Positions 34,270-50,002 of a stretch of DNA of 64,000 nucleotides are shown here, in pieces; within the stretch, counting starts at the first letter, position 1; every line of letters starts with the position of its first letter. The notes below the pieces were generated by a model that made no database searches, was not told where the DNA came from, and worked only from the letters and a program-made list of their open reading frames with translations. Source of the DNA: an uncultured Thermodesulfobacteriota bacterium (GTDB lineage: Bacteria; Desulfobacterota; GWC2-55-46; JADFVP01). The stretch spans positions 13,507-77,506 of the forward strand of contig CAZMKZ010000001.1 in assembly GCA_964567185.1 (NCBI GenBank), written 5' to 3'. The position numbers were made by a program, and so were the translations under genes.

Positions 34270-34343
34270 TGGAGCGGGCGATGGGAATCGAACCCACGTG
34301 TGCAGCTTGGGAAGCTGCCATTCTACCATTGAATCACGCCCGC
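34270..34343 (-). tRNA. tRNA-Gly (anticodon CCC)
   Basis: Reverse complement is GCGGGCGTGATTCAATGGTAGAATGGCAGCTTCCCAAGCTGCACACGTGGGTTCGATTCCCATCGCCCGCTCCA. Cloverleaf fits: GCAGC/GCTGC anticodon stem, loop TTCCCAA, TTCGATT T-loop, encoded CCA. Confidence 0.9.
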
Positions 34344-37941: not shown

Positions 37942-37970
37942 TTGACAGGGCCGTGAGGATATATTATTGT
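37942..37970 (+). promoter_or_regulatory. candidate promoter TTGACA-17 nt-TATTGT driving the riboswitch transcript
   Basis: -35 hexamer at 37942-37947 and -10 at 37965-37970, about 25 nt upstream of the riboswitch P1 stem. Confidence 0.45.
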
Positions 37971-37995
37971 CATAGCACAATTGAATAAATGGATA

Positions 37996-38150
37996 TCTTA
38001 TCCAGAGTGGTGGAGGGACTGGCCCGATGAAACCACAGCAACCGGTGCATCACTGCATGTCAGGTGCTAAATCCAGCAGGGTTTGCAAAAACCCTGAAAG
38101 ATAAGAAGAACTAAGAGACCCTCTTCTTATCCCAAGAAGAGTTTTTTTTT
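37996..38150 (+). ncRNA. SAM-I (S-box) riboswitch with intrinsic terminator expression platform
   Basis: TCTTATCCAGAGTGGTGGAGGGACTGGCCCGATGAAACCACAGCAACC...CTGAAAGATAAGAAG. The GGTGGAGGGACTGGCCCGATGAAACC core matches the SAM-I kink-turn/P2-P3 consensus, and P1 is TCTTATC/GATAAGA. A terminator CTCTTCTT-ATCCC-AAGAAGAG plus T9 lies at 38121-38150, and its 5' arm can alternatively pair with the P1 3' strand. Confidence 0.85.
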
Positions 38151-38218: not shown

Positions 38219-39472
38219 ATGAAGTACATGAAAGGATTAAAGTGCAGGGAGTGCGGGAAGCGCTATCCCCTGGAACCGATCCATGTCTGCGAGTTCTGTT
38301 TCGGGCCCCTTGAGGTGGACTATGATTACGAGAAGATAGGCAAGTCCATTACCAGAGACATCATTACCACCAGAGCCCCTAATATGTGGAGATACAGGGA
38401 GTTGCTTCCCATAGACGCCGAGCCCACGGTGGGCAACAACTCCGGATTTACGCCCCTTGTAAGGGCCTATAACCTGGGCGAGGCCCTGGGCGTTAAAGAA
38501 CTGTACATAAAGAACGACGCCGTTAATTTCCCGACCCTCTCTTTCAAGGACAGGGTGGTCTCCGTGGCCATCTCAAGGGCCAGAGAGATGGGCTTTGACG
38601 TCATCGCCTGCGCCTCAACGGGCAACCTGGCCAACTCCGTTGCCGCCAACTCCGCGGCCTGCGGCCTTGATAGCTATGTCTTCATACCCTATGACCTTGA
38701 GCAGACCAAGATAACGGGAACCCTTATCTACGGCACTAACCTCGTGGGCATAAAGGGGACCTATGACGAGGTGAACAGGCTCTGCAGCGAGATAGGCGGC
38801 AAATACGGATGGGCCTTTGTAAACATCAACATCAGACCCTTTTATGCCGAGGGCTCCAAGACATTCGGCTACGAGATAGCCGAGCAGTTGGGCTGGAAGC
38901 TCCCGCAGCACGTTATTGTGCCCATGGCCGGGGGCTCTCTCATCACAAAGATATGGAAGGCCTTCAAGGAGTTCAAGGCCCTTGGTTTTGTCGATTCTCC
39001 GCCGGCGAAGATATACGGCGCGCAGGCAACGGGATGCGCCCCCATAGTAACGGCTGTTAAGGAAAAGAGCGAGCTCATCCGTCCGGTCATGCCCGATACT
39101 ATCGCCAAATCCCTTGCCATCGGCAACCCGGCCGACGGCTTTTACTCCGCAAGGGCCATCAGGGAGAGCAATGGCTGGGCCGAGGACGTTTCAGATGAAG
39201 AGATAATCGAGGCCATGAAGCTCCTTGCCGAGACAGAGGGCATTTTTGCCGAGACAGCCGGCGGCGTTACCGTGGGCGTGACTAAAAAACTCATCGAGCA
39301 GGGCAGGATACCCCGTGACGAGTCCATAGTCATCTCCATTACGGGCAACGGCCTTAAGACTCAGGAGTGCCTGGCGGGAAAAATCGCCGAGCCCCCTGTA
39401 ATAGAGGCTAAACTTGCCGAGTTCGACGCCCTGCTTGAGGGCGGCTCCGTGCGGAAGACGGCGGTAAAATAA
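38219..39472 (+). CDS. threonine synthase-like PLP enzyme (fold type II) with an N-terminal zinc ribbon; candidate O-phosphohomoserine-dependent homocysteine synthase (MetM-like, MA1715-like)
   Basis: CRECGKRYPLEPIHVCEFCFGPLEV zinc ribbon. PLP lysine motif FPTLSFKDRVVSV. ThrC-like length of 417 aa. First gene after a SAM riboswitch. Confidence 0.8.
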   Translation: MKYMKGLKCRECGKRYPLEPIHVCEFCFGPLEVDYDYEKIGKSITRDIITTRAPNMWRYRELLPIDAEPTVGNNSGFTPLVRAYNLGEALGVKELYIKNDAVNFPTLSFKDRVVSVAISRAREMGFDVIACASTGNLANSVAANSAACGLDSYVFIPYDLEQTKITGTLIYGTNLVGIKGTYDEVNRLCSEIGGKYGWAFVNINIRPFYAEGSKTFGYEIAEQLGWKLPQHVIVPMAGGSLITKIWKAFKEFKALGFVDSPPAKIYGAQATGCAPIVTAVKEKSELIRPVMPDTIAKSLAIGNPADGFYSARAIRESNGWAEDVSDEEIIEAMKLLAETEGIFAETAGGVTVGVTKKLIEQGRIPRDESIVISITGNGLKTQECLAGKIAEPPVIEAKLAEFDALLEGGSVRKTAVK

Positions 39473-39677: not shown

Positions 39678-40673
39678 ATGACGGACCATTTCATAGAGGA
39701 TAAGAGCCATAAGGTAGACCTTGACCTTGAGAACCTCAGCGGTAAGGTTAACTTCGGCGACCTCAAATCCGGGGGGTTCATAAAGCAGCGCCAGAAGGAC
39801 CTCTTTACCGTAAGGCTCCGCTGTCCCGGCGGCAGGATGACTACGGACAAGCTCGTGGAGATATCGAGGCTCGCAAAAAAATACAGCAAAGAGGGTGTGG
39901 TGCACTTCAGCTACCGCCAATCCCTTGAGATACTATATGTGGATTATAAGGACTTTCACGCCCTTGTGGGCGAGCTTGAGAAGATAGGTCAGAAAGTGGC
40001 CTCATGCGGGCCCCGTGTAAGGGTGCCCACTGCCTGCGGCGGATGCGAGTATAACCCCAACGGGCTTATAGACGCGCAGAAGATGGCCCGCATGGTGGAC
40101 GGTAAGTTCTTCGGAACAAATACGCCGCATAAGTTCAAGACCTCTTTTTCGGGCTGTCCCATAGATTGCTCAAGGACCGTTGAGATGGACCTCGGTTTTC
40201 AGGGCGTAGTGGACCCCGAGTGGGAGCAGGACCTCTGCACGGGATGCACCATCTGCTCCGAGGCCTGTAAAGAGGGGGCCATTGAGGCCCACCCCGATAC
40301 AGGAGAACCAATCTTCGACGTTAGTAAATGCCTTTACTGCGCCGACTGCATACGGGCCTGTCCCACCGAGGCGTGGAAACCCGGCAAGCACGGCTTTCTT
40401 GTGCGCATTGGCGGCAAACATGGCCGTCATCCCCTTGAGGGCGTTGAAATCTGCCGTTTCCTACCGGAGGAAAAGGTAAGCGACGCCATAGAGATGACCG
40501 TCAGGTGGTATAAAGAAAACGGCAAGAGTTTCGAGAGGATAGGGCACACCCTGCAGAGGGTGGGCATGGACGGTTATCTTGACCACATGGCCCCGCTCTT
40601 CGGTGATTATGCCGTTAGACCAAAGCATCCGCCCACGGACCGTCCGCTGATCAATAAGCCCGAAGGGGCCTGA
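39678..40673 (+). CDS. small dissimilatory-type-like sulfite reductase (Dsr-like, alSiR-type) with an inserted 2x[4Fe-4S] ferredoxin domain (start ATG 39678 with RBS AAGGAGG)
   Basis: NIR_SIR-type Cys cluster SCGPRVRVPTACGGC ... GCPIDCSRT. Ferredoxin motifs CTGCTICSEAC and CLYCADCIRACP. Confidence 0.7.
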   Translation: MTDHFIEDKSHKVDLDLENLSGKVNFGDLKSGGFIKQRQKDLFTVRLRCPGGRMTTDKLVEISRLAKKYSKEGVVHFSYRQSLEILYVDYKDFHALVGELEKIGQKVASCGPRVRVPTACGGCEYNPNGLIDAQKMARMVDGKFFGTNTPHKFKTSFSGCPIDCSRTVEMDLGFQGVVDPEWEQDLCTGCTICSEACKEGAIEAHPDTGEPIFDVSKCLYCADCIRACPTEAWKPGKHGFLVRIGGKHGRHPLEGVEICRFLPEEKVSDAIEMTVRWYKENGKSFERIGHTLQRVGMDGYLDHMAPLFGDYAVRPKHPPTDRPLINKPEGA

Positions 40674-40788: not shown

Positions 40789-41028
40789 ATGAGTGAGATA
40801 AAGGCAAAGGACAGCATCGATTTAAGGGGCGTCATGTGTCCCACAAACTTTGTAAAGACCAAGCTCAAGCTCGAGGCCATGAACCCCGGCGAGATACTCG
40901 AAGTGGTGCTTGACAGCGGCGAGCCTATCGCCAACGTGCCGAAAAGCGTCAAGGAAGAGGGACACAAGATAGTCAAGGTAAGCAAAGACGACGGCTCATT
41001 CAGGATTTTGATAGAGGTCTCTGAATAG
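40789..41028 (+). CDS. TusA/SirA-family sulfurtransferase-like protein
   Basis: 79 aa. ...IDLRGVMCPTNFVKTKLKLEAM... is a Cys-Pro TusA-like motif in a two-layer alpha/beta fold. Confidence 0.65.
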   Translation: MSEIKAKDSIDLRGVMCPTNFVKTKLKLEAMNPGEILEVVLDSGEPIANVPKSVKEEGHKIVKVSKDDGSFRILIEVSE

Positions 41029-41063: not shown

Positions 41064-41348
41064 ATGTCAGTAAAGGTGAGGATACCCACACCCCTGAGGA
41101 AGATTACAAAGGACAACGACGAGGTCACTGCCGACGGGGCCACGGTCTCCGAGGTAATAGACGACCTGGAGAAAAACTATCCGGGAATAAAGGAGAGGAT
41201 ATGCGAGGCCGACGGGAACCTCCGCCGCTTTGTAAACCTCTATCTCAATGACGAGGACATTCGCTTCAAGGATAACCTCGCTACTGCACTGAAAGACAAC
41301 GATGAACTCTCCATCATTCCGGCCATCGCCGGAGGAGGTGGCCTTTGA
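41064..41348 (+). CDS. ThiS/MoaD-family sulfur-carrier protein (CysO/HcyS/MetO-like) whose C-terminus ...AIAGGGG-L* needs proteolytic exposure of Gly-Gly
   Basis: 94 aa beta-grasp pattern with a glycine-rich C-terminus followed by a single Leu before the stop at 41346-41348. Confidence 0.7.
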   Translation: MSVKVRIPTPLRKITKDNDEVTADGATVSEVIDDLEKNYPGIKERICEADGNLRRFVNLYLNDEDIRFKDNLATALKDNDELSIIPAIAGGGGL

Positions 41349-41581
41349 AAAAAAAGGTCTATCTAACCTATCCTCCGGAGAGGGTGAGAGAGCCTCTTCT
41401 CTGTGAGTGCGTGCGCAGGTTCAATGTCGTAACCAACATAAGGCAGGCCTCTGTTACGGACAAGATAGGCATCGTGGCCCTTGAGCTCGAAGGCGAGCCC
41501 ACGGAGATAGAAAAGGCCATGGACTTTTTTACTGAAAACGGCGTGAAGGTCGAGCCTATTGAGATGAATATTATCGAGTAG
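41345..41581 (+). CDS. stand-alone NIL-domain protein (the MetN C-terminal-type domain). TTG start overlaps the carrier-gene stop by 4 nt (TTGA); RBS GGAGGAGGTG
   Basis: KVYLTYPPERVREPLLCECVRRFNVVTNIRQASVTDKIGIVALELEGEPTEIEKAMDFFTENGVKVEPIE aligns by eye to the MetN NIL domain (LTFTGE...PLISEL.RRFGVDVNIL.GNIE...G.L.VELEGD...ALAYL.E.GV.VEVL). Confidence 0.7.
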   Translation: MKKKVYLTYPPERVREPLLCECVRRFNVVTNIRQASVTDKIGIVALELEGEPTEIEKAMDFFTENGVKVEPIEMNIIE

Positions 41582-41810: not shown

Positions 41811-42767
41811 ATGAGCAGCCATACCTTGAAGAGTTTTGACGCAGGGAACGAGTTTGCCATCCCGAAGGCGAGGTCCTCGGCCCTTGACCTTGTGGGCAAT
41901 ACGCCCCTTGTGAGGATAAACAGCATTACAGCGGGTCTTCCAGCCGGCGTAGAGGTATACGCCAAGCTCGAGTCCGCCAACCCCGGGGGCTCTGTAAAGG
42001 ACAGGCCGGCGCTCCGTATGATAGAAGACGCCGAGAAGAGCGGAAGGCTTACCAGGGATAAGATAATACTGGACTCCACATCGGGAAACACGGGCATTGC
42101 CTATGCGTGGATAGGCGCCGTAAAGGGCCATCGCGTAGAGCTGGTGGTTCCGGAAAACGTCAGCGCCGAGAGAAAAAAGATACTCGACGCCTTTGGGGCC
42201 AAGGTCATATTTTCAAGCCCCTTCGAGGGCTCCGACGGTGCGATACGTCTTGCCTGGAAGCTCTACGTGGATAACCCCGAAAAGTACTGCAAGCTCGATC
42301 AGTACAATAACCCCTCCAACCCCCTTGCCCATTACCATGGCACGGGAGTTGAGATAATCGAGCAGACAGGGGGCAGGATCACGCACTTTGTCACCACCAT
42401 AGGCACGGGCGGCACCATAATGGGGACCATGCGCAGGCTCAAGGAGTTTAACAGCAATATCGAAGTAACCGCCGTTGAGCCCGACAACCCCATGCATGGG
42501 CTTGAGGGCCTGAAACACATGGCCTCGTCCATAGTGCCGGGCATCTATCACGAGGACTCGCTGGACAGGAAGATACCGGCCTCCACCGAAGAATCTTACG
42601 AGATGGCCAAGAGGCTAGCCCGTGAAGAGGGCCTTCTTGTGGGGCAGTCATCGGGGGCGGCCATGCTCGGAGCGCTCAAGGTGGCCATGGAGCTTAAAGA
42701 GGGTCTTGTTGTGACAATATTCCCCGACGGCGGAGATAAGTACCTCTCCACAAGCCTCTGGGATTAA
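41811..42767 (+). CDS. cysteine synthase-like PLP enzyme (CysM/CysK family, fold type II)
   Basis: GNTPLVRINSI...VYAKLESANPGGSVKDRPALRMIEDAEKSGRL...DSTSGNTGIAYAWIGAVKGH is the classic CysK/CysM N-terminal half, including the PLP lysine. Confidence 0.85.
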   Translation: MSSHTLKSFDAGNEFAIPKARSSALDLVGNTPLVRINSITAGLPAGVEVYAKLESANPGGSVKDRPALRMIEDAEKSGRLTRDKIILDSTSGNTGIAYAWIGAVKGHRVELVVPENVSAERKKILDAFGAKVIFSSPFEGSDGAIRLAWKLYVDNPEKYCKLDQYNNPSNPLAHYHGTGVEIIEQTGGRITHFVTTIGTGGTIMGTMRRLKEFNSNIEVTAVEPDNPMHGLEGLKHMASSIVPGIYHEDSLDRKIPASTEESYEMAKRLAREEGLLVGQSSGAAMLGALKVAMELKEGLVVTIFPDGGDKYLSTSLWD

Positions 42768-43010: not shown

Positions 43011-43463
43011 ATGGGTCTACTCTCAAAGTTCAAGAAAAAGAATAAGCTGAAGGTGCCTAAGGACGTTTACGATATCATCATTGAACATGCCAGAGAGGAG
43101 TATCCCCATGAGTGTTGCGGAGTTCTCATAGGTAACGCCATGATGGGCAGAAAGATATTCTACGCCGACAAATGCACGAACCTGAACCGCGAGAGCGCAC
43201 ATAACAGGTATCTCATGGACCCCAAGGAGATAAATCTTGCCGATAAGGGTGCGCGCTCGCAGAGCCTTGAGCTTATGGGCTTTTATCACTCTCATCCGGA
43301 CCATCCGGACAGGCCCTCGGAGTACGACAGGGAGATGGCCCAGCCCGGATACTCATATATAATAGTCTCCGTAAAGGGCGGTACCGAGTTCTCCTTGAAG
43401 TCATGGACCTTTAACGAGGACGATGAACCCTTCAAGGAAGAGCCCGTGGAGATAGGCAAATAA
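43011..43463 (+). CDS. JAMM/MPN+ family metalloprotease (Mec+/HcyD/QbsD-like)
   Basis: E...ECCG, HSHPDHPDRPSEYD (JAMM motif HxHx7Sx2D). 150 aa. Confidence 0.85.
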   Translation: MGLLSKFKKKNKLKVPKDVYDIIIEHAREEYPHECCGVLIGNAMMGRKIFYADKCTNLNRESAHNRYLMDPKEINLADKGARSQSLELMGFYHSHPDHPDRPSEYDREMAQPGYSYIIVSVKGGTEFSLKSWTFNEDDEPFKEEPVEIGK

Positions 43464-43584: not shown

Positions 43585-44394
43585 ATGGATTTTACCGATG
43601 AACAGATAGAGCGTTACTCAAGGCATATCATACTTCCGGAGGTAGGCGGAAAGGGGCAGGCAAAGCTCCTTGAGTCCAGGGTCTTTGTCCTCGGCGCGGG
43701 GGGGCTCGGTTCTCCGGCCCTGCTTTACCTTGCCGCGGCGGGCGTGGGCACCATAGGGGTTGCAGACGGCGACGTTGTGGATGTAAGCAACCTTCAGCGC
43801 CAGATAATACACGACAACAATACCGTTGGTATGCCAAAGGTGGATAGCGCGCGAAAGTCCATTGAGGCCCTTAATCCCGATGTTGAGGTAAAGACCTTTA
43901 ACGGCAGACTTGATACGGAGAACATCAGAGAGGTCCTTCGGGATTACGATGTGGTCCTTGACGGCTCTGATAATTTTCCAACGCGCTACCTCATGAACGA
44001 CGCCTCTTTTTTCGAGGGCAAGACCCTTGTCTCGGGGTCCATGTTCAGGTTTGACGGGCAGGTCTCTGTCTTCAAGCCGCAGGAGGGCTTTCCCTGTTAC
44101 AGATGCCTCTACCCGGAGCCCCCGCCAAAGGGCATGGTTCCGTCCTGTCAGGAGGCCGGTGTGCTTGGGGCCCTTGCGGGAGTTATAGGGGTACTGCAGG
44201 CCGTGGAGGCCATAAAAGAGATACTCTCCATCGGCAAATCCCTTGCCGGCGAGCTCTTGATATTCGACGCCCTTGCCATGAGTTTCCGCAAGGTCAAGGT
44301 GCGCACAGACCCTGATTGCGCGCTCTGCGGCGGGAATGCTACCATAAAGGAGCTCTCGCTCTATGAGCAGGCCCCATGCGAGCTGCGTACCTGA
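43585..44394 (+). CDS. ThiF/MoeB/HcyF-type E1-like adenylyltransferase (no rhodanese domain)
   Basis: RYSRHIILPEVGGKGQAKLLESRVFVLGAGGLGSPALLYLAAAGVG nucleotide-binding motif. C-terminal Zn motif CYRC...CALCGG. Confidence 0.85.
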   Translation: MDFTDEQIERYSRHIILPEVGGKGQAKLLESRVFVLGAGGLGSPALLYLAAAGVGTIGVADGDVVDVSNLQRQIIHDNNTVGMPKVDSARKSIEALNPDVEVKTFNGRLDTENIREVLRDYDVVLDGSDNFPTRYLMNDASFFEGKTLVSGSMFRFDGQVSVFKPQEGFPCYRCLYPEPPPKGMVPSCQEAGVLGALAGVIGVLQAVEAIKEILSIGKSLAGELLIFDALAMSFRKVKVRTDPDCALCGGNATIKELSLYEQAPCELRT

Positions 44395-44461: not shown

Positions 44462-45697
44462 GTGGTATTGAAAAGCCTGGATTACTTCAAGAACCCCGGA
44501 GCCCTTAAGATAGACCTTATGCTGAGGGGGGCGGCCATAGAAGACCCCCTTGTGAAGGCGCATGCCTGCGGGGCCTCTGGCATAGATATACTCCTGCCTA
44601 AAAAGACCCTCGTAAACATCCCCTGCGAAGACTGGTTTACCGTGCGCTCCCCTTATCTCATTAAAAAGTCTGAAAAGGGGTATGTCCTTACAAACGGCAA
44701 GGCCGAGGTCAGGGTAAGCATACTTCCGCCGCCGAAGTTTTACGGACTGAAGACAAGTTCAGGCGTAAGGCTTGGAGAAATAGCCAGCACTCACGGGAGT
44801 TACACCGTCATAACGCCCGACCAGAGGTGCGCTTTTTTTAAATCAAGCGCCCAGTGCCGTTACTGCGCGGGAAACTTCAGGTCCGACGCCGCCGCGTCCG
44901 GCGCGCGCGTCTATACAGTAGACGAGGTATTAGAGACAGTAAAAGCGGTATTCAGGGAGAGGGCCTCCGGGATAATATACCTCTCAATAGGTTTTGCCGA
45001 GGGCGATGACGGGGGTATAAAATTTCTTGAGCCCTATGTAAGGGCCATTAAGGGGCATTTTAACTGCCTTGTCGCAGTAGAGGCCCTGCCCCCCGCGCGA
45101 AACGAGTGGATCGACAGGGCGTACGCCAGCGGCGTTGATTCACTGCTCTATAACCTTGATATCTTTGATAAGGAGCTTTTTTCCATAATCTGCCCGGGCA
45201 GGGCCGGCCTCATAGGCAGGAAGAGGACCCTTGAAGCCCTGAAATACGCCGCGGGTATCTTCCCTAACGGCACGGTGGCCTCGCACCTCATTGTGGGGCT
45301 TGAACCGCCGGGTTCCACTATCATGGGCATAGATTATCTTACGGATATCGGCGTAGTGCCCATACTGCCCATATTCCGGCCTTCAAGGGAGAGGCCCCTT
45401 GATGTTACGGACCTTCATGCCGAGGTGATTATACCGGTATATCAGCACCTGTACCGGTCCTTGAAGAAAAAGGGCATTAACTTCAACTGGGTCCGCGACA
45501 TAAGCATGGTGACAACCCCCGTGGAGGGCAGGTTCCTCCTTGGGGAAAAAGAGGGCTCAGCCTCTCTGCTTGATAATTTTTACGGCTCAAAGCTCGGCCT
45601 TAAGACGGCATGGGGGCTCTCGGCCCTTCGAAGGCGGCTGCGGGTAAAAAAGCCCGCCAATGAAGAAAACCCCCCAGGCGGGTCTGAAAAGACATAA
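44462..45697 (+). CDS. uncharacterised protein with the Cys triad CAFFKSSAQCRYC (CX8CX2C). Possibly a non-canonical radical-SAM-like TIM-barrel enzyme, or alternatively the COG1900/DUF39 homocysteine-synthesis protein
   Basis: GTG start. 411 aa. Glycine-rich stretch IYLSIGFAEGDDGG about 35 aa after the Cys triad, and later ...VPILPIFRPSRERPL, reminiscent of radical SAM beta-strand motifs. No canonical CX3CX2C. Confidence 0.35.
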   Translation: MVLKSLDYFKNPGALKIDLMLRGAAIEDPLVKAHACGASGIDILLPKKTLVNIPCEDWFTVRSPYLIKKSEKGYVLTNGKAEVRVSILPPPKFYGLKTSSGVRLGEIASTHGSYTVITPDQRCAFFKSSAQCRYCAGNFRSDAAASGARVYTVDEVLETVKAVFRERASGIIYLSIGFAEGDDGGIKFLEPYVRAIKGHFNCLVAVEALPPARNEWIDRAYASGVDSLLYNLDIFDKELFSIICPGRAGLIGRKRTLEALKYAAGIFPNGTVASHLIVGLEPPGSTIMGIDYLTDIGVVPILPIFRPSRERPLDVTDLHAEVIIPVYQHLYRSLKKKGINFNWVRDISMVTTPVEGRFLLGEKEGSASLLDNFYGSKLGLKTAWGLSALRRRLRVKKPANEENPPGGSEKT

Positions 45698-45710: not shown

Positions 45711-47135
45711 GTGAGAGTGGAGATAGACAGGAGGCCCATATCAATAATCATCGCCAATAAGGCGCTGAGGCCCCTTTTTTTCCTTCTCCTTACGGTGGGA
45801 TTTTTCTCATTCCTATACCTCCCCGTGCCCGAGGGGCTGGGGCAGGGCGGCATGAGGGCCATAGCCGTCTTTCTTCTATGCCTTGTGCTCTGGGTCTCAA
45901 ATGCCGTTCCCGTGGCCATTACGGGGCTCTTCGCCATAGTCCTCGTGCCGCTTCTGGGCATACTGCCAAGGGGCGATACGTATTCCCTATTCGGCAATGA
46001 GGCCGTGTTTTTCATACTCGGCGCCTTTATCCTCTCCGGGGCGGTCATGCAGTCCGGCCTCTCGAACAGGGTGGCCCTGCGGCTGATGGAAAAATACGGC
46101 GGCTCTCCGAAGAGGCTTATCATAAGCATATTTCTTCTCGCCGCGGCACTCTCATTCGTAATGAGCGAGCACGCCGTTGCGGCCATGCTCTTTCCCATAG
46201 TGCTTGAGATATCAAAGAGCCTGAAGCTCCGGCCCGGCGTTTCCAACTACGGAAAGCTCCTCTTCTTTGCCCTTGCCTGGGGTTCGGTCATAGGCGGGGT
46301 GGGGACCTTTCTCGGCGGAGCGCGTGTGCCCCTTGCCATGGGCATTCTGAAGGAGACCACGGGCTCTACCATAGGCTTTCTGGATTATACCGTGGCCGTC
46401 GCGCCCCTTGTCGTGGTGCTGCTGGTGGTGGGATACATCGTGCTGACAAGGTTCTTTCCCATTGACATCGAGGGCGTAGAGAGCGCGCACGAGGTCATTG
46501 TAAGGCGCGCCCGCGCCCTTGGCAAGGTGCGCCCGGCAGAGTACGCCGTAGGGGCCATACTCCTTATTACCATCTTTTTCTGGGTGACCATTGGCAAGAC
46601 CGTGGGCCTTGCCGCCATCGCCATGGTCTCGGTGATGGCCCTCTTTGTATTGAAGCTCGTAAAGTGGCGTGAAATTGAGGAGTATGTGAACTGGGGAATA
46701 ATCCTCATGTACGGCGGGGCTATTATCCTCGGCACGGCCCTTGACAGGAGCGGCGCCGCCAAATGGATGGTAGACGCCATTATGACTCAATGGGCCGAGA
46801 CGCCGGTGACGGTGCTGGCGCTCTTTTCACTCCTGGCCATACTGCTCACCGAGTCCATGAGCAACGCCGCCGTCATCGCCGTGCTCCTGCCCGTGAGCAT
46901 CGGCATGGCCGGAAGCACCAATATGAGCCCGGAAGTCCTTACCTATGCCGTGGCCATTCCGGCGGGTCTGGCCTTTATGCTGCCCATGAGCACGCCGGCC
47001 AACGCCATCGCCGTATCAAGCGACTACATATCCGTGCGCGATATGGCAAAGGGAGGGGTGATAATGTTCATCACCTCATGGGTCACCTTTAATCTCATGG
47101 CCCATTTTTACTGGCCCCTCATAGGGCTAAGGTAG
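45711..47135 (+). CDS. SLC13/DASS-family anion permease (Na+/sulfate symporter-like). Start at GTG 45711 with RBS AAGGGAG; the track start 45660 overlaps the upstream gene
   Basis: Polytopic. The PVPEGLGQGGMRAIAVFLLCLVLWVSNAVPVAITGLF hairpin-loop motif is typical of DASS transporters. Confidence 0.65.
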   Translation: MRVEIDRRPISIIIANKALRPLFFLLLTVGFFSFLYLPVPEGLGQGGMRAIAVFLLCLVLWVSNAVPVAITGLFAIVLVPLLGILPRGDTYSLFGNEAVFFILGAFILSGAVMQSGLSNRVALRLMEKYGGSPKRLIISIFLLAAALSFVMSEHAVAAMLFPIVLEISKSLKLRPGVSNYGKLLFFALAWGSVIGGVGTFLGGARVPLAMGILKETTGSTIGFLDYTVAVAPLVVVLLVVGYIVLTRFFPIDIEGVESAHEVIVRRARALGKVRPAEYAVGAILLITIFFWVTIGKTVGLAAIAMVSVMALFVLKLVKWREIEEYVNWGIILMYGGAIILGTALDRSGAAKWMVDAIMTQWAETPVTVLALFSLLAILLTESMSNAAVIAVLLPVSIGMAGSTNMSPEVLTYAVAIPAGLAFMLPMSTPANAIAVSSDYISVRDMAKGGVIMFITSWVTFNLMAHFYWPLIGLR

Positions 47136-47224: not shown

Positions 47225-47689
47225 ATGGGCAATAAAATACTACTCGTTCTATCGACTCACTCGTACTCGGACCAGGCCGTTGAATATGCTGTCACGAGGG
47301 CCGCGCAGGAGGGCCGTGTGCTTGTGGCCTTCTTTCTGCTTGAGTCGGAGCTTGCCAGAGAGGCCTCGGAGAGGTTCTCGGATATCGGCTTTACAGGCGA
47401 CAAGCCTTCGGCCACGCTCACGGAGTCTCTTATGCGTGAGTACAGGCAGAGGGGCTACGAGGCCCTTGGCAGGGCGCAGATAAGGGCCATGGAGGAGGGC
47501 GTGAGCTTTGAGCCTCTTCTGGATGAAGGGCCTTATGTCTCCACCATACTCGATGCCATAGAGGTCAATGATATAGGACTTGTGGTTATACAGAAGCGCA
47601 GGGAGAGGTCTCTTTTCAAGTACTTTAAAAAGGGTCTTTCCGCAGAGGTGAAAGAGATGGCCTCCTGTGAGGTCGTTATAGTGGAGTAA
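47225..47689 (+). CDS. universal stress protein (UspA family)
   Basis: 154 aa Usp alpha/beta fold. NKILLVLSTHSYSDQAVEYAV...CEVVIVE. Confidence 0.75.
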   Translation: MGNKILLVLSTHSYSDQAVEYAVTRAAQEGRVLVAFFLLESELAREASERFSDIGFTGDKPSATLTESLMREYRQRGYEALGRAQIRAMEEGVSFEPLLDEGPYVSTILDAIEVNDIGLVVIQKRRERSLFKYFKKGLSAEVKEMASCEVVIVE

Positions 47690-47724: not shown

Positions 47725-48432
47725 ATGGCAGTAAAGAAGTGGTCTGAAGAAGAACTTAAAGAGGTATCCGCGGAGCTTGAAGACAAGGGGCCGCAGGCGG
47801 CCATTCAGTGGGCCGTGGACAATTTTGAGAGGCAGGACCTGTCCCTTGCCTGTAGCTTCGGCGCCGAGGATGTAGCCCTGGTGGATATGCTCGTGAAGAT
47901 AAAACCTGACGCCAGGATATTTTATCTTGATACAAACAAGCTCTTTAAGGAAACCATTGATGTTATGGAGCGCCTTAAGGAGAAGTACCACATAAACCCT
48001 GAAAAATACTGCACAAAGATGAGCCTTGAGGAGCAGGCCGAAAAATTTGGACCTGAGCTCTGGAAAAAAGACCCCAAGCAGTGTTGCGATATCAGGAAGA
48101 TAAAACCTCTTAGAGAGGCCCTGTCTGGGCTCAGCGCATGGATAACTGGCATAAGAAGGGACCAGGCCCCTGCAAGGGCCAATGCCCCTGTCGTTGGCTG
48201 GGATTCCATGTTCAACCTGGTGAAGATAAACCCCCTTGTCAAATGGACGAGCGACGATGTATGGGATTATATCCGCGCCAATGACGTGCCCTACAATGTG
48301 CTCCACGACAGGAATTATCCCTCCATCGGCTGTGAGCCATGCACCAATGAGGTAAAACCCGGCGAAGACCCCAGGGCCGGAAGATGGGCTGGTTTCAAGA
48401 AGACCGAGTGCGGCCTTCATGACAAATCATAG
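47725..48432 (+). CDS. cysH: assimilatory adenylyl-/phosphoadenylyl-sulfate reductase (CysH family, Fe-S type)
   Basis: PAPS_reduct fold (SFGAEDVALVDMLVKI). Fe-S Cys pairs KQCCDIRK and IGCEPCT. Catalytic C-terminal ECGLH. Confidence 0.85.
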   Translation: MAVKKWSEEELKEVSAELEDKGPQAAIQWAVDNFERQDLSLACSFGAEDVALVDMLVKIKPDARIFYLDTNKLFKETIDVMERLKEKYHINPEKYCTKMSLEEQAEKFGPELWKKDPKQCCDIRKIKPLREALSGLSAWITGIRRDQAPARANAPVVGWDSMFNLVKINPLVKWTSDDVWDYIRANDVPYNVLHDRNYPSIGCEPCTNEVKPGEDPRAGRWAGFKKTECGLHDKS

Positions 48433-48520: not shown

Positions 48521-49684
48521 GTGGAGTCATTGATACCGCCCCATGGCGGCGTGCTTGTTAACAGGGTCGTAGAGGGTAAGGCCCGTCTTGATATGGAAAA
48601 AGCCTCTCTTGATATGAATACCCTCACCCTTAATGCGAGGGAGATATCAGACCTTGAGATGATAGCCACGGGCGGGTTCAGCCCCCTCGAGGGGTTCATG
48701 TGTCATGACGATTATCACTCTGTCATGGATACCATGACGCTGATAAACGGCCTGCCCTGGACCATACCCGTAACCCTTTCTGTAACCACGGAGGAGGCGG
48801 CCGGACTTAAAGAGGGCGTGGATGTTGCCCTTAATAACGAAAAAGGGGAGCTTCTCGCTATCCTTCATCTTGAGGAGATTTTCAAGCATGACAAGGAAAA
48901 AGAGGCCCTTCGAGTATACGGCACCGCCGAAGACGCGCACCCGGGGGTGAAAAACGTCTATGCAATGGGCGAGATGCTTCTTGGCGGCAAGGTCTCCATG
49001 CTCAAACGCACCGAGTACGGCGAGTTCAATGAATACCGCAGGGACCCGCTTGAGACAAGACAGCTCTTCAAGAAGAACGGCTGGAGGCGTGTTGTGGGCT
49101 TTCAGACAAGAAACCCCATACACAGGGCCCATGAGTACATACAGAAGTGCGCCCTTGAGACAGTTGACGGTCTTCTCATACACCCCCTTGTGGGCGAGAC
49201 AAAGGCCGACGACATACCTGCCGATGTGCGGATGCGTTGCTACACGACCCTTATGGAGAAGTATTACCCCGCCGACAGGGTAGTGCTCTCCGTATACCCG
49301 GCGGCCATGCGCTACGCAGGCCCCCGTGAAGCCGTCTTTCATGCCCTGATTCGCAAAAATTACGGCTGTACGCATTTTATCGTAGGCAGAGACCACGCAG
49401 GGGTGGGCGGGTATTACGGCACCTTTGACGCCCATCTCATATTCGACCAGTTCGAGCCCGAGGCCATAGGCATAGCGCCCATGTTCTTTGACTATACCTT
49501 TCATTGCAGGAGCTGCGGCGGCATGGCCTCGTACAAGACCTGCCCCCACGATTCATCGGAGCATATTACCCTTTCGGGAACAAAGGTAAGGGAGATGCTG
49601 AGGGCCGGAACGTGCCCTCCGCCTGAATTCTCAAGGCCGGAGGTGGCAAAGGTCCTCATTGAAGCCATGAAGCCGGCGGATTAA
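48521..49684 (+). CDS. sat: sulfate adenylyltransferase (ATP sulfurylase)
   Basis: GTG start with [26 protein letters not shown] and GRDHAGVG motifs. Confidence 0.9.
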
Positions 49685-49710
49685 GGACGGCTCTCAACCA
49701 GCGTCATTAA

Positions 49711-49740
49711 AAGGCCCCTCATGGAGGGGTCTTTTTTTTT
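49711..49740 (+). terminator. rho-independent terminator after sat (GGCCCCTC-ATG-GAGGGGTC plus T10)
   Basis: Perfect 8-bp GC-rich stem followed by ten T residues. Confidence 0.7.
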
Positions 49741-50002
49741 GGGCAATAATTGCAGTCCGCCTTAATCGTTCTTTTTTTTACCTTTTAATCTTGTTCTCAT
49801 GTTATATGATGAATATTAATAGTATCTCTGAAGTATTATGGCCGCTTTTTTGTCATTATGTCGTAATGCCCTTCGCGGGGGGCGGGGTAGAGCCGGCTGG
49901 TTTACAGCAGGGGGCTTGAGGGTTTGGCGCTCCATGGCCGGTCTTTTGTCATGAGAGCCGATTTACGTAACCTGTACTCAATAATAAGTGTGTCCATGAC
50001 TT

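Follow-up and report, generated by a model that had tools for sequence, protein, structure and literature searches.

A capped ThiS/MoaD-type sulfur carrier encoded with a JAMM protease in a SAM-riboswitch operon: a proposed protein-thiocarboxylate route to homocysteine and cysteine in an uncultured Thermodesulfobacteriota bacterium

A small ORF of an uncultured Thermodesulfobacteriota bacterium reads as a sulfur carrier whose Gly-Gly is followed by further residues, and a JAMM protease gene lies in the same cluster. Does this ORF encode a carrier that has to be trimmed before use, where would the cut fall and which pathway would the mature protein serve? We addressed these questions in the window, i.e. 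the whole stretch of 64,000 nucleotides analysed (contig CAZMKZ010000001.1). Our main reading, to which we give a probability of about 75 %, is that the ORF is the pro-form of a CysO/MetO/HcyS-type carrier, trimmed by the JAMM protease and feeding the synthesis of both homocysteine and cysteine. The gene and its parts are the following:

41064..41348, + strand: gene for a ThiS/MoaD (CysO/MetO-type) sulfur-carrier pro-protein, assigned from family models, the CysO alignment and homologue tails
Codons up to 41336, + strand: carrier core, residues 1-91, ending AIAGG
41337..41345, + strand: cap, G92-G93-L94
41346..41348, + strand: stop codon

Direct reading gave an ORF of 94 aa, with AGGAGG preceding its start ATG at 41064 and a C-terminus ...SIIPAIAGGGGL*. 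Its 3' codons, GCC GGA GGA GGT GGC CTT TGA, read A-G-G-G-G-L-stop, and the GGGG-L end and TGA of the original prediction are thereby borne out. The ThiS/MoaD-like nature claimed for the ORF was likewise confirmed by family models and by its closest structure. Pfam ThiS PF02597 matched over profile positions 1-76 of 76 (E 2.6e-18), and the NCBIfam models SAMP1 (69.5, cut-off 60) and TIGR01687 moaD_arch (53.3, cut-off 49.5) were both passed. The best solved relative was M. tuberculosis CysO (3dwg_C, E 1.6e-24), whose residues 1-93 aligned end to end with carrier residues 1-91, G90-G91 falling on the C-terminal GG of CysO. The AF2 model had the strand and helix order of a beta-grasp fold (mean pLDDT 90.5), with a last strand at residues 81-86 and a flexible end at 87-94, and mean pLDDT was 42 over residues 91-94. 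The terminal Leu, for which a sequencing or frameshift artefact had been named as a refuting outcome, is real: 6 contigs, drawn from 5 independent samples, encode the identical 94-aa protein, and relatives at 86-96 % identity are likewise 94 aa long and stop at the same place.

Relatives of the carrier are present in at least 595 GTDB species. Both G90 and G91 were invariant in 42 aligned homologues, and ...PAIAGG was invariant in all 120 carrier homologues, followed by a hypervariable tail (RGL, KGL, REL, GCF, GGV, KV, AA and others). Tail length in the best 120 homologue clusters was 0 aa in 4, 1 aa in 11, 2 aa in 75, 3 aa in 24 and more than 4 aa in 6, which makes capped carriers (116/120 nearest clusters) the rule in this widespread family. 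This invariance next to a hypervariable tail, together with the Pfam, NCBIfam and CysO alignments, which all stop at residue 91, argues that the cap is GGL and not Leu alone; the three extra residues beyond the invariant GG at 90-91 mark the protein as a pro-form. The masked Gly-Gly of the original prediction thus stands as to the mask itself but not as to its extent, the single Leu being replaced by G92-G93-L94 after the conserved G90-G91.

The surroundings of the carrier gene were annotated as follows:

37942..37970, + strand: sigma-70-like promoter, TTGACA-17-TATTGT, before the riboswitch (10/12 consensus positions, a consensus match only)
37995..38107, + strand: SAM (S-box) riboswitch aptamer (RF00162, 94 bits versus gathering 44.4, E 2.7e-21, full model 1-108)
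38121..38150, + strand: terminator-like hairpin and T9 run (CTCTTCTTATCCCAAGAAGAG then TTTTTTTTT), likely the riboswitch expression platform
38219..39472, + strand: ThrC-like PLP enzyme with N-terminal Zn ribbon, proposed MetM-type homocysteine synthase
39678..40673, + strand: small sulfite reductase of the siroheme type, with a 2x[4Fe-4S] ferredoxin domain as insertion (NIR_SIR_ferr, NIR_SIR, Fer4); start codon taken from the gene call of locus L001
40789..41028, + strand: TusA/SirA-like sulfur relay protein gene (Cys17; PF01206, E 1.9e-22)
41333..41339, + strand: Shine-Dalgarno AGGAGGT of the NIL gene, made of the G90, G91 and G92 codons, 5 nt before the TTG
41345..41581, + strand: stand-alone NIL-domain protein gene, 78 aa, whose TTG start overlaps the carrier TGA stop (TTGA)
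41811..42767, + strand: CysM/CysK-family cysteine synthase gene (PLP Lys in SVKDR, residue 63)
43011..43463, + strand: JAMM/MPN+ metalloprotease gene (Prok-JAB PF14464 E 7.4e-27; 2kcq E 5.7e-24)
43585..44394, + strand: MoeB/ThiF-type E1 adenylyltransferase gene, without rhodanese domain (ThiF PF00899, E 1.3e-79)
44468..45697, + strand: variant radical-SAM protein gene (NF045502, 166 bits versus cut-off 125)
45711..47135, + strand: DASS-family anion (sulfate) symporter gene
47225..47689, + strand: gene of the universal stress protein family, within the string (PF00582)
47725..48432, + strand: APS/PAPS reductase (CysH type) gene (PF01507)
48521..49684, + strand: ATP sulfurylase gene (PF01747, E 8e-99, plus PUA_2)
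49709..49745, + strand: strong terminator-like hairpin of 12 pairs with a T run, likely operon end

The ThrC-like, CysM, JAMM and E1 genes all lie within 3.3 kb of the carrier on its strand, a linkage kept in relatives, and the same one-strand string holds the sulfite reductase, TusA, NIL, DASS transporter, PAPS reductase and ATP sulfurylase genes. Among 80 species loci, 58 had a ThrC-like gene at most 5 kb from the carrier on the same strand, usually ~0.8 kb upstream, and a SAM riboswitch also stood upstream of ThrC-like/ThiS pairs in 7/8 related loci. The radical-SAM gene after the E1 is kept in several relatives. The ThrC-like protein (CxxC at 9 and 24, SFKD Lys at 110) passes NCBI threonine-synthase models; threonine synthase is a common misannotation of MetM-type enzymes according to GapMind. 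CysM scored 234 bits with E. coli CysM and 199 bits with the O-phosphoserine-specific M. tuberculosis CysM. The best NCBIfam match of the sulfite reductase gene, to the model for sulfite reductase subunit C, did not reach the cut-off.

The JAMM gene, originally placed 1.7 kb downstream of the carrier, was found at 1.66 kb with an intact active-site motif: ORF 43011-43463 carries HSHPDHPDRPSEYD at residues 93-106, plus Glu34 upstream, i.e. a complete zinc site (E34, H93-S-H95-x7-S103-x2-D106). The E1 named alongside it was recovered by its ThiF match, with GAGGLG at 37, CxxC at 171 and 245, and Cys188. By established chemistry, adenylation by an E1 requires that the carboxylate of the C-terminal glycine be free, which makes removal of the cap a necessity. 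In 80 species loci, which are not phylogenetically independent and in which a JAMM gene was scored only within the fetched locus, such a gene accompanied 26/35 carriers with tails of at least 2 aa and 6/45 with tails of at most 1 aa (Fisher p 4e-8); the fetched locus held no JAMM gene in 9/35 species with tails of at least 2 aa and in 16/20 with 1-aa tails. Where the carrier is fused to a NIL domain (ThiS-NIL), a JAMM gene was present near 9/11 examined fusions and absent within 7 kb of the two others. For tailed carriers or fusions without a nearby JAMM gene, the protease may be encoded elsewhere or another peptidase may be able to act.

According to our proposal, the carrier would be made with G92-G93-L94 beyond the family-invariant ...PAIAGG91, and the co-encoded JAMM metalloprotease would most likely cut after G91. 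The rhodanese-less MoeB/ThiF E1 would then adenylate G91, and attack of sulfide on the acyl-adenylate would yield carrier-COSH, the sulfide being supplied by the same operon through the sulfate symporter, ATP sulfurylase, APS/PAPS reductase and small sulfite reductase, possibly with a TusA relay. Two PLP enzymes would use the carrier thiocarboxylate as nucleophile: with activated homoserine, the ThrC-like (MetM-type) enzyme would give a carrier-homocysteine adduct, and with activated serine, CysM would give a carrier-cysteine adduct. After an S-to-N acyl shift, the same JAMM protein would hydrolyse the adducts to homocysteine or cysteine and carrier-GG, and the SAM riboswitch would turn the operon off when methionine/SAM is plentiful. 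What we infer, for a protein known from its sequence, is that the carrier is cut, where it is cut, that it forms a thiocarboxylate and which acceptor substrates are used. That the carrier-JAMM pairing reflects protein-thiocarboxylate amino-acid biosynthesis, as originally suggested, gains support from the kinship with CysO, the two PLP sulfhydrylase-type genes and the E1, and further from the sulfite reductase, TusA and sulfate-activation genes, the SAM riboswitch and the co-occurrence of tails and JAMM genes; the assignment of the operon to a protein-thiocarboxylate route to homocysteine and cysteine is thus supported.

Two alternatives concern the cap itself. In the register of the original prediction, the functional di-glycine would be G92-G93, the cap Leu94 and the cut GGGG|L; the carrier does read GGGG-L, four glycines in one protein are compatible with a cut after G93, relatives with GGV, GGS or GGC tails fit the same reading, and one-residue caps exist, reportedly in HcyS (GG-A). 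We nevertheless hold this register to be unlikely, as relatives at 91-94 % identity carry RGL, KGL or REL in place of GGL, so that no second GG is conserved, all three sets of alignments end at G91, and a carrier with 2 more residues would still need to fit the active sites that its orthologues reach with 91. About equally improbable, in our view, is that the tail results from nothing but its overlap with the NIL gene and is left in place or removed by a housekeeping carboxypeptidase, with the JAMM protein only hydrolysing carrier-Cys/carrier-Hcy adducts. The tail codons do coincide with the AGGAGGT Shine-Dalgarno, spacer and TTGA overlap, the uncapped CysO still has Mec+, and no JAMM gene lies near many of the carriers with 1-residue tails. 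An uncut carrier, however, could not be adenylated, longer tails and whole-domain fusions are strongly associated with JAMM genes, and tails also occur without NIL overlap, as in Poribacteria, where a carrier with the tail SSDDERD lies 0.4 kb from a JAMM gene; JAMM trimming moreover has precedents in QbsD and CxnF (PMC5925218).

The two other alternatives change the function of the carrier and fare worse. A ubiquitin-like modifier (SAMP/TtuB-like), conjugated by the E1 to target lysines and removed by the JAMM protein as an isopeptidase, would agree with the passed SAMP1 model and with matches of the JAMM protein to a desampylase model and of the E1 to a UbaA model; yet both of these fail their cut-offs (84 versus 130 and 344 versus 450, respectively), E2- and E3-like genes are absent, the operon behind the SAM riboswitch is filled with genes for sulfur assimilation and PLP sulfhydrylases, and the nearest solved relative is CysO, all of which makes a mainly modifying role very improbable. 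Least credible, to a degree that we regard as negligible, is the MoaD identity (small subunit of molybdopterin synthase) given by several database names: source annotations do read 'molybdopterin synthase sulfur carrier subunit' and moaD_arch is above cut-off, but neither MoaE nor any other Moco gene was found within 10 kb on either side of the carrier, the gene surroundings are those of Met/Cys synthesis and sulfate assimilation, with a SAM riboswitch in control, and genuine MoCo operons lack JAB genes according to Iyer et al. 2006 (PMC1779556).

The trimmed-carrier reading places the locus in a class that is not new: its description dates from 2006, and Wolinella, Mycobacterium and Streptomyces have each provided a biochemical reconstitution. 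Krishnamoorthy and Begley are said to have reported, in 2011, the HcyS/HcyD/HcyF/Sir/MetY set of Wolinella succinogenes as a protein-thiocarboxylate methionine pathway, with HcyS capped as GG-A. This system and the window share a capped ThiS-like carrier, a JAMM protein and a rhodanese-less E1, and the HcyD-type JAMM reportedly both trims the carrier and frees homocysteine, for which we propose a counterpart here. The cap has 3 residues in the window versus, reportedly, 1 in HcyS; the homocysteine-forming enzyme is the O-acetylhomoserine sulfhydrylase MetY in Wolinella, whereas we propose a ThrC-like (MetM-type) enzyme for the window, which also adds CysM, a NIL gene translationally coupled to the carrier and the variant radical-SAM gene. 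Both belong with the operons that Iyer, Burroughs and Aravind (2006) grouped as class 4e, which have a rhodanese-less E1 plus SirA; one cluster unites sulfite reductase and SirA/TusA with the genes that transport and activate sulfate (PMC1779556).

The Streptomyces albulus MetO/MetM/Mec/MoeZ system, an O-phosphohomoserine thiocarboxylate route (Hasebe et al. 2024), resembles the window by a ThrC homologue paired with a ThiS-like carrier and by a SAM riboswitch upstream (on metM), a likeness to MetM/MetO that is by description. Mec-type JAMM maturation is reportedly required there, whereas in the window it is a proposal; the Streptomyces E1, MoeZ, is described as common to other pathways and as having a rhodanese domain, unlike the E1 of the window, where TusA and sulfite reductase are also co-encoded. 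In M. tuberculosis, Mec+ hydrolyses the carrier-cysteine adduct of the CysO/CysM/Mec+ pathway (PMC3227635). The combination of CysM, JAMM and E1 in CysO/CysM/Mec+/MoeZR is shared with the window, and CysO is the closest solved relative; CysO ends at GG uncapped and MoeZR has a rhodanese domain, whereas the window carrier is capped and its E1 lacks this domain, and the M. tuberculosis operon is without the ThrC-like enzyme and sulfate-reduction genes that the window has. Residues after GG and a cluster-encoded JAMM that removes them are also described for QbsE (CF)/QbsD of thioquinolobactin and CxnE (decapeptide)/CxnF of chuangxinmycin (PMC5925218), which are secondary-metabolite pathways, whereas the window would serve amino-acid biosynthesis.

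A whole SAM-controlled operon of an uncultured Thermodesulfobacteriota lineage would thus be assigned to the route from sulfate via a protein thiocarboxylate to homocysteine and cysteine. Present annotations ('threonine synthase', 'molybdopterin synthase sulfur carrier subunit', 'ubiquitin-like small modifier protein 1', 'FeS-binding protein') would accordingly be wrong or vague, and their correction bears on the reconstruction of metabolism, e.g. by GapMind-type tools and in the prediction of auxotrophies.

The NIL-domain partner, fused to the carrier elsewhere, is an under-described twist of this well-known type of system. Relatives repeat the layout in which the NIL Shine-Dalgarno lies within the carrier 3' codons. 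Since the tail codons serve as Shine-Dalgarno, spacer and overlapping TTG of the NIL gene, we propose that the tail is a tolerated by-product sequence, removed by the protease. Elsewhere, carrier and NIL form one in-frame fusion (ThiS-GG-linker-NIL), an architecture counted in at least 120 further protein clusters; release of the carrier from such a single polypeptide would require a cut at the Gly-Gly. Homopolymer assembly errors were ruled out as the source of these fusions, both by the number of distinct clusters with the same architecture and by the junctions at two loci (L011 and L020), which have no uninterrupted A run. NIL domains have a relative in MetN, where it binds methionine and has a regulatory role. 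We tentatively suggest, as a possibility and no more than that, that carrier and NIL are two halves of one unit, NIL being a stoichiometrically co-produced, so far undescribed partner of the thiocarboxylate pathway; it would act, e.g., as a Met/homocysteine sensor gating carrier activation or as a pro-carrier chaperone. If so, ThiS-NIL would be a bacterial counterpart of ubiquitin fusion precursors, and in any case the coupling and fusion provide a testable lead on the role of NIL domains in homocysteine synthesis. Two further candidates were rejected: a sulfur relay through a conserved NIL Cys, as the C-E-C of the window's NIL protein is not kept in relatives, and a ThiS-NIL fusion of solved structure in the Thermus 'MoaD related protein' 1v8c, whose C-terminal domain was not matched by the NIL query.

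A programmed frameshift or transcriptional slippage leading to ThiS-NIL in the window was also rejected, the +1 frame reading FEKKGLSNLSSGEGERASSL*, which is not the NIL frame. Slippage in the A run would be unable to bypass the TGA, which precedes the run or coincides with its start, and a -1 slip from CUU to CCU at the carrier-NIL junction was dismissed for want of pairing support. Termination-reinitiation at the TTGA overlap is a simpler reading than frameshifting. The carrier-NIL junction, GGAGGAGGUGGC CUU UGA A8, does resemble the prfB +1 site, with the A8 run after it.

The carrier gene lies in a string of genes on its own strand, preceded by a SAM riboswitch that is predicted to control the entire string, from the ThrC-like gene through ATP sulfurylase. 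The features retrieved were the following:

37942-37970, promoter-like site ahead of the riboswitch
37995-38107 (+), SAM (S-box) riboswitch (RF00162, 94 bits, gathering score 44.4, E 2.7e-21)
38121-38150, terminator-like hairpin with a T9 run, 3' of the riboswitch
38219-39472 (+), ThrC-like PLP enzyme with an N-terminal zinc ribbon
39678-40673 (+), small sulfite reductase with an inserted ferredoxin domain
40789-41028 (+), TusA/SirA
41064-41348 (+), ThiS/MoaD carrier, between the TusA/SirA and NIL genes
41345-41581 (+), NIL-domain protein, 78 aa
41811-42767 (+), CysM
43011-43463 (+), JAMM protease, site E34...H93-S-H95-x7-S103-x2-D106 complete
43585-44394 (+), E1 of MoeB/ThiF type, 269 aa, without rhodanese domain
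44468-45697 (+), variant radical-SAM protein (NF045502, related to the MSMEG_0568 family)
3' of the radical-SAM gene (+), DASS anion symporter
between the DASS and APS/PAPS reductase genes (+), Usp protein
between the Usp and ATP sulfurylase genes (+), APS/PAPS reductase
48521-49684 (+), ATP sulfurylase, last gene of the string
49709-49745, strong terminator-like hairpin at the end of the string

The protease and E1 assignments of the original prediction were borne out, the JAMM gene lying 1,663 bp downstream of the carrier and encoding, by sequence, a full metalloprotease site. No MoaE, ThiG or E2-like gene was found near the operon. The variant radical-SAM gene, placed between E1 and the DASS transporter, is kept at the equivalent position in eight fetched loci of carrier relatives (L006, L008, L009, L011, L029, L058, L068 and L077). 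The operon follows ABC-transporter genes, upstream of which is a tRNA gene (34273-34343, minus strand).

The carrier belongs to the ThiS/MoaD family (Pfam PF02597, E 2.6e-18, whole profile covered) and scored above the cut-offs of the NCBIfam SAMP1 and MoaD-family models. Direct reading of the sequence placed AGGAGG ahead of its ATG (41064) and confirmed its end as GCC GGA GGA GGT GGC CTT TGA (...A-G-G-G-G-L-stop, TGA 41346-41348, 94 codons). An artefactual Leu94 was ruled out, since six contigs, drawn from five independent samples, encode the identical protein and relatives of 86-96 % identity are of equal length.

The cap had been taken as this single Leu, a register that did not hold. All family models matched to the carrier end at residue 91, and the closest solved structure, that of the cysteine-pathway carrier CysO of M. 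tuberculosis (3dwg_C, E 1.6e-24), aligns end to end (CysO 1-93, carrier 1-91), its C-terminal ...PAVAGG corresponding to ...PAIAGG91. SI(I/V)PAIAGG is invariant in the 120 nearest homologue clusters (74-100 % identity) and is followed by hypervariable tails (RGL, KGL, REL, GCF, GGV, GGS, GAV, KV, RV, AA, AF, RS and others) of 0 (n = 4), 1 (n = 11), 2 (n = 75), 3 (n = 24) or more than 4 residues (n = 6). As a second Gly-Gly is missing from the RGL, KGL and REL relatives (91-94 % identity), G91 is predicted to be the conserved activation site and G92-G93-L94 the cap. In the AlphaFold model (mean pLDDT 90.5, final beta-strand 81-86), the mean pLDDT over residues 91-94 is 42, which predicts a flexible tail. 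In one relative, protein P0035 (locus L010, 2575-2955) bears after its Gly-Gly a 35-aa Gly/Ala/Pro-rich low-complexity extension encoded by GGGGCC-type repeats, possibly an artefact of assembly, possibly a genuine long cap.

Relatives were scanned in one genome per GTDB species, giving at least 595 species, from which 80 loci were fetched. They came from Thermodesulfobacteriota/Deltaproteobacteria, Poribacteria, Binatota, Verrucomicrobiota, Planctomycetota (Brocadia), Nitrospirota, Zetaproteobacteria, Dehalococcoidia and Latescibacterota. Same-strand neighbours within 5 kb of the carrier included ThrC-like (at least 58 of the 80 loci), NIL (at least 54), CysM-like (at least 48) and E1 genes (at least 31), these counts being lower bounds because many loci are incomplete; the usual place of the ThrC-like gene is directly upstream, at about 0.8 kb. 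To find JAMM genes, a profile was built from the loci themselves.

Tail after the Gly-Gly and JAMM gene in the locus (loci with; loci without)
None: 2; 23
1 residue: 4; 16
2-10 residues: 17; 7
In-frame NIL fusion: 7; 0
Other long: 2; 2

A JAMM gene was present in 26/35 loci with tails of at least two residues versus 6/45 with at most one (Fisher p 4e-8, species not being independent), and in 14/19 versus 5/23 when flanks of at least 5 kb on both sides were required (p 0.0015). Since species are not independent and the counts cover the fetched loci, with genes elsewhere in the genome outside view, tail length and JAMM presence are associated, short of proof. JAMM was absent within 10 kb in L037, L054, L056, L077 (Zetaproteobacteria) and other loci whose carriers have one-residue tails (K, R or C) and lie in ThrC-like/ThiS/NIL/CysM/E1 clusters; there, the protease may be encoded at another genomic site or the residue may be removed otherwise.

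Of 8 loci scanned, drawn from six lineages, 7 have a SAM riboswitch ahead of the ThrC-like/carrier pair, and the eighth ends short upstream; the riboswitch-preceded pairs belong to Verrucomicrobiota, Brocadia, Mariprofundus, Dehalococcoidia and Acidulodesulfobacterium. Streptomyces albulus is reported to make homocysteine from O-phosphohomoserine with a ThrC homologue (MetM) and a thiocarboxylated carrier (MetO) matured by a Mec-type protease, metM being under a SAM riboswitch. The riboswitch and pairing are the signature of this pathway, which makes it probable that the riboswitch-linked 'threonine synthases' are in fact MetM-type homocysteine synthases under a wrong name.

We propose that JAMM would trim the 94-aa pro-carrier after G91, which E1 would adenylate; sulfide would convert the acyl-adenylate to a thiocarboxylate, the sulfide coming from the sulfate-reduction enzymes of the operon and perhaps passing through TusA. 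This thiocarboxylate would serve the ThrC-like enzyme and CysM in forming carrier-homocysteine and carrier-cysteine adducts, both hydrolysed by JAMM with regeneration of the carrier, and SAM would switch the operon off. We give this mechanism as a whole a probability of about 0.75. Its steps follow the established chemistry of CysO/CysM/Mec+, QbsE/QbsD and MetO/MetM/Mec, with HcyS/HcyD/HcyF reportedly a further precedent. The first is documented in PMC3227635 and the second in PMC5925218. The idea that carrier plus JAMM denotes protein-thiocarboxylate amino-acid biosynthesis is supported by operon content, riboswitch and tail-JAMM association.

Iyer, Burroughs and Aravind (2006; PMC1779556, Table 1 row 4e) listed an operon class of ThiS/MoaD, JAB and an always rhodanese-less E1, with Geobacter and Wolinella among the examples, to which the present operon belongs as a new member. 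The original prediction is hence correct as written and of an already-known type. Within this class, the window's operon is set apart by a probable MetM-type enzyme in place of MetY, an additional CysM, a three-residue cap, a coupled NIL gene and the variant radical-SAM gene. Carrier-NIL coupling or fusion is the only part for which no description was found in the literature searched.

The NIL start TTG (41345) overlaps the carrier stop (TTGA) and is the first possible start, given that a stop at 41303-41305 closes its frame. A perfect Shine-Dalgarno sequence, AGGAGGT (41333-41339), formed by the G90, G91 and G92 codons, lies 5 nt before it; the carrier's tail codons would thus double as Shine-Dalgarno end, spacer and start of the NIL gene, which is predicted to be translationally coupled to the carrier. 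Close relatives have an equivalent layout (GGAGGA GCG CTT TGA; ...ATA TCT TGA), with 17 or 20 nt from the Gly-Gly to the first conserved NIL codon. The junction (41331-41356, GGAGGAGGUGGC-CUU-UGA-A8) bears a superficial likeness to the prfB +1 frameshift site (SD-like, then CUU UGA), with an A8 run after it; such frameshifting into NIL was rejected and the resemblance is regarded as coincidental, as the +1 frame is not that of NIL.

Many other lineages have the NIL domain fused in frame to the carrier (loci L011, L017, L020, L025, L040, L068, L076 and L086-L089). In seven species the spacing from Gly-Gly to NIL measures 18 or 33 nt and a single polypeptide results, laid out as ...PAIAGG, a basic linker of 5-15 aa and (V/F)YL(T/N)YP.... 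Homopolymer errors were rejected as their origin, L011 and L020 having no uninterrupted A run at the junction and the database search returning at least 120 distinct 90 % clusters of ThiS+NIL proteins (170-189 aa, down to 47 % identity). PAIAGG is kept in all clusters found, and the proteins are annotated merely as MoaD/ThiS or hypothetical protein. No account of this architecture turned up in the literature searched, and among the papers listed there for the NIL domain none names MoaD or a sulfur carrier as well; NIL/ferredoxin proteins have already been linked to homocysteine formation by the DUF39 route, which is unrelated. The NIL domain is similar to the C-terminal, methionine-binding domain of MetN (3dhx, E 8.6e-5).

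Iyer et al. (2006) suggested that, in fusions of ThiS/MoaD to other proteins, JAB releases the C-terminus. A JAMM gene was nearby in 9/11 fusion loci inspected; the other two (one Limnocylindrales, one metagenome) had none within 7 kb, only a ThrC-like gene adjoining the fusion. One fusion modelled with AlphaFold shows two confidently predicted domains (mean pLDDT 88), and the drop below 50 exactly at A89-G90-G91, with a pTM of 0.52, indicates a flexible hinge at the Gly-Gly. In the fusion-bearing L088 (5691-6725) and L089 (5688-6710), a ThiI/PP-loop ATPase-like gene lies between the ThrC-like gene and TusA, which suggests sulfur delivery to the carrier by a route other than the window's sulfite reductase.
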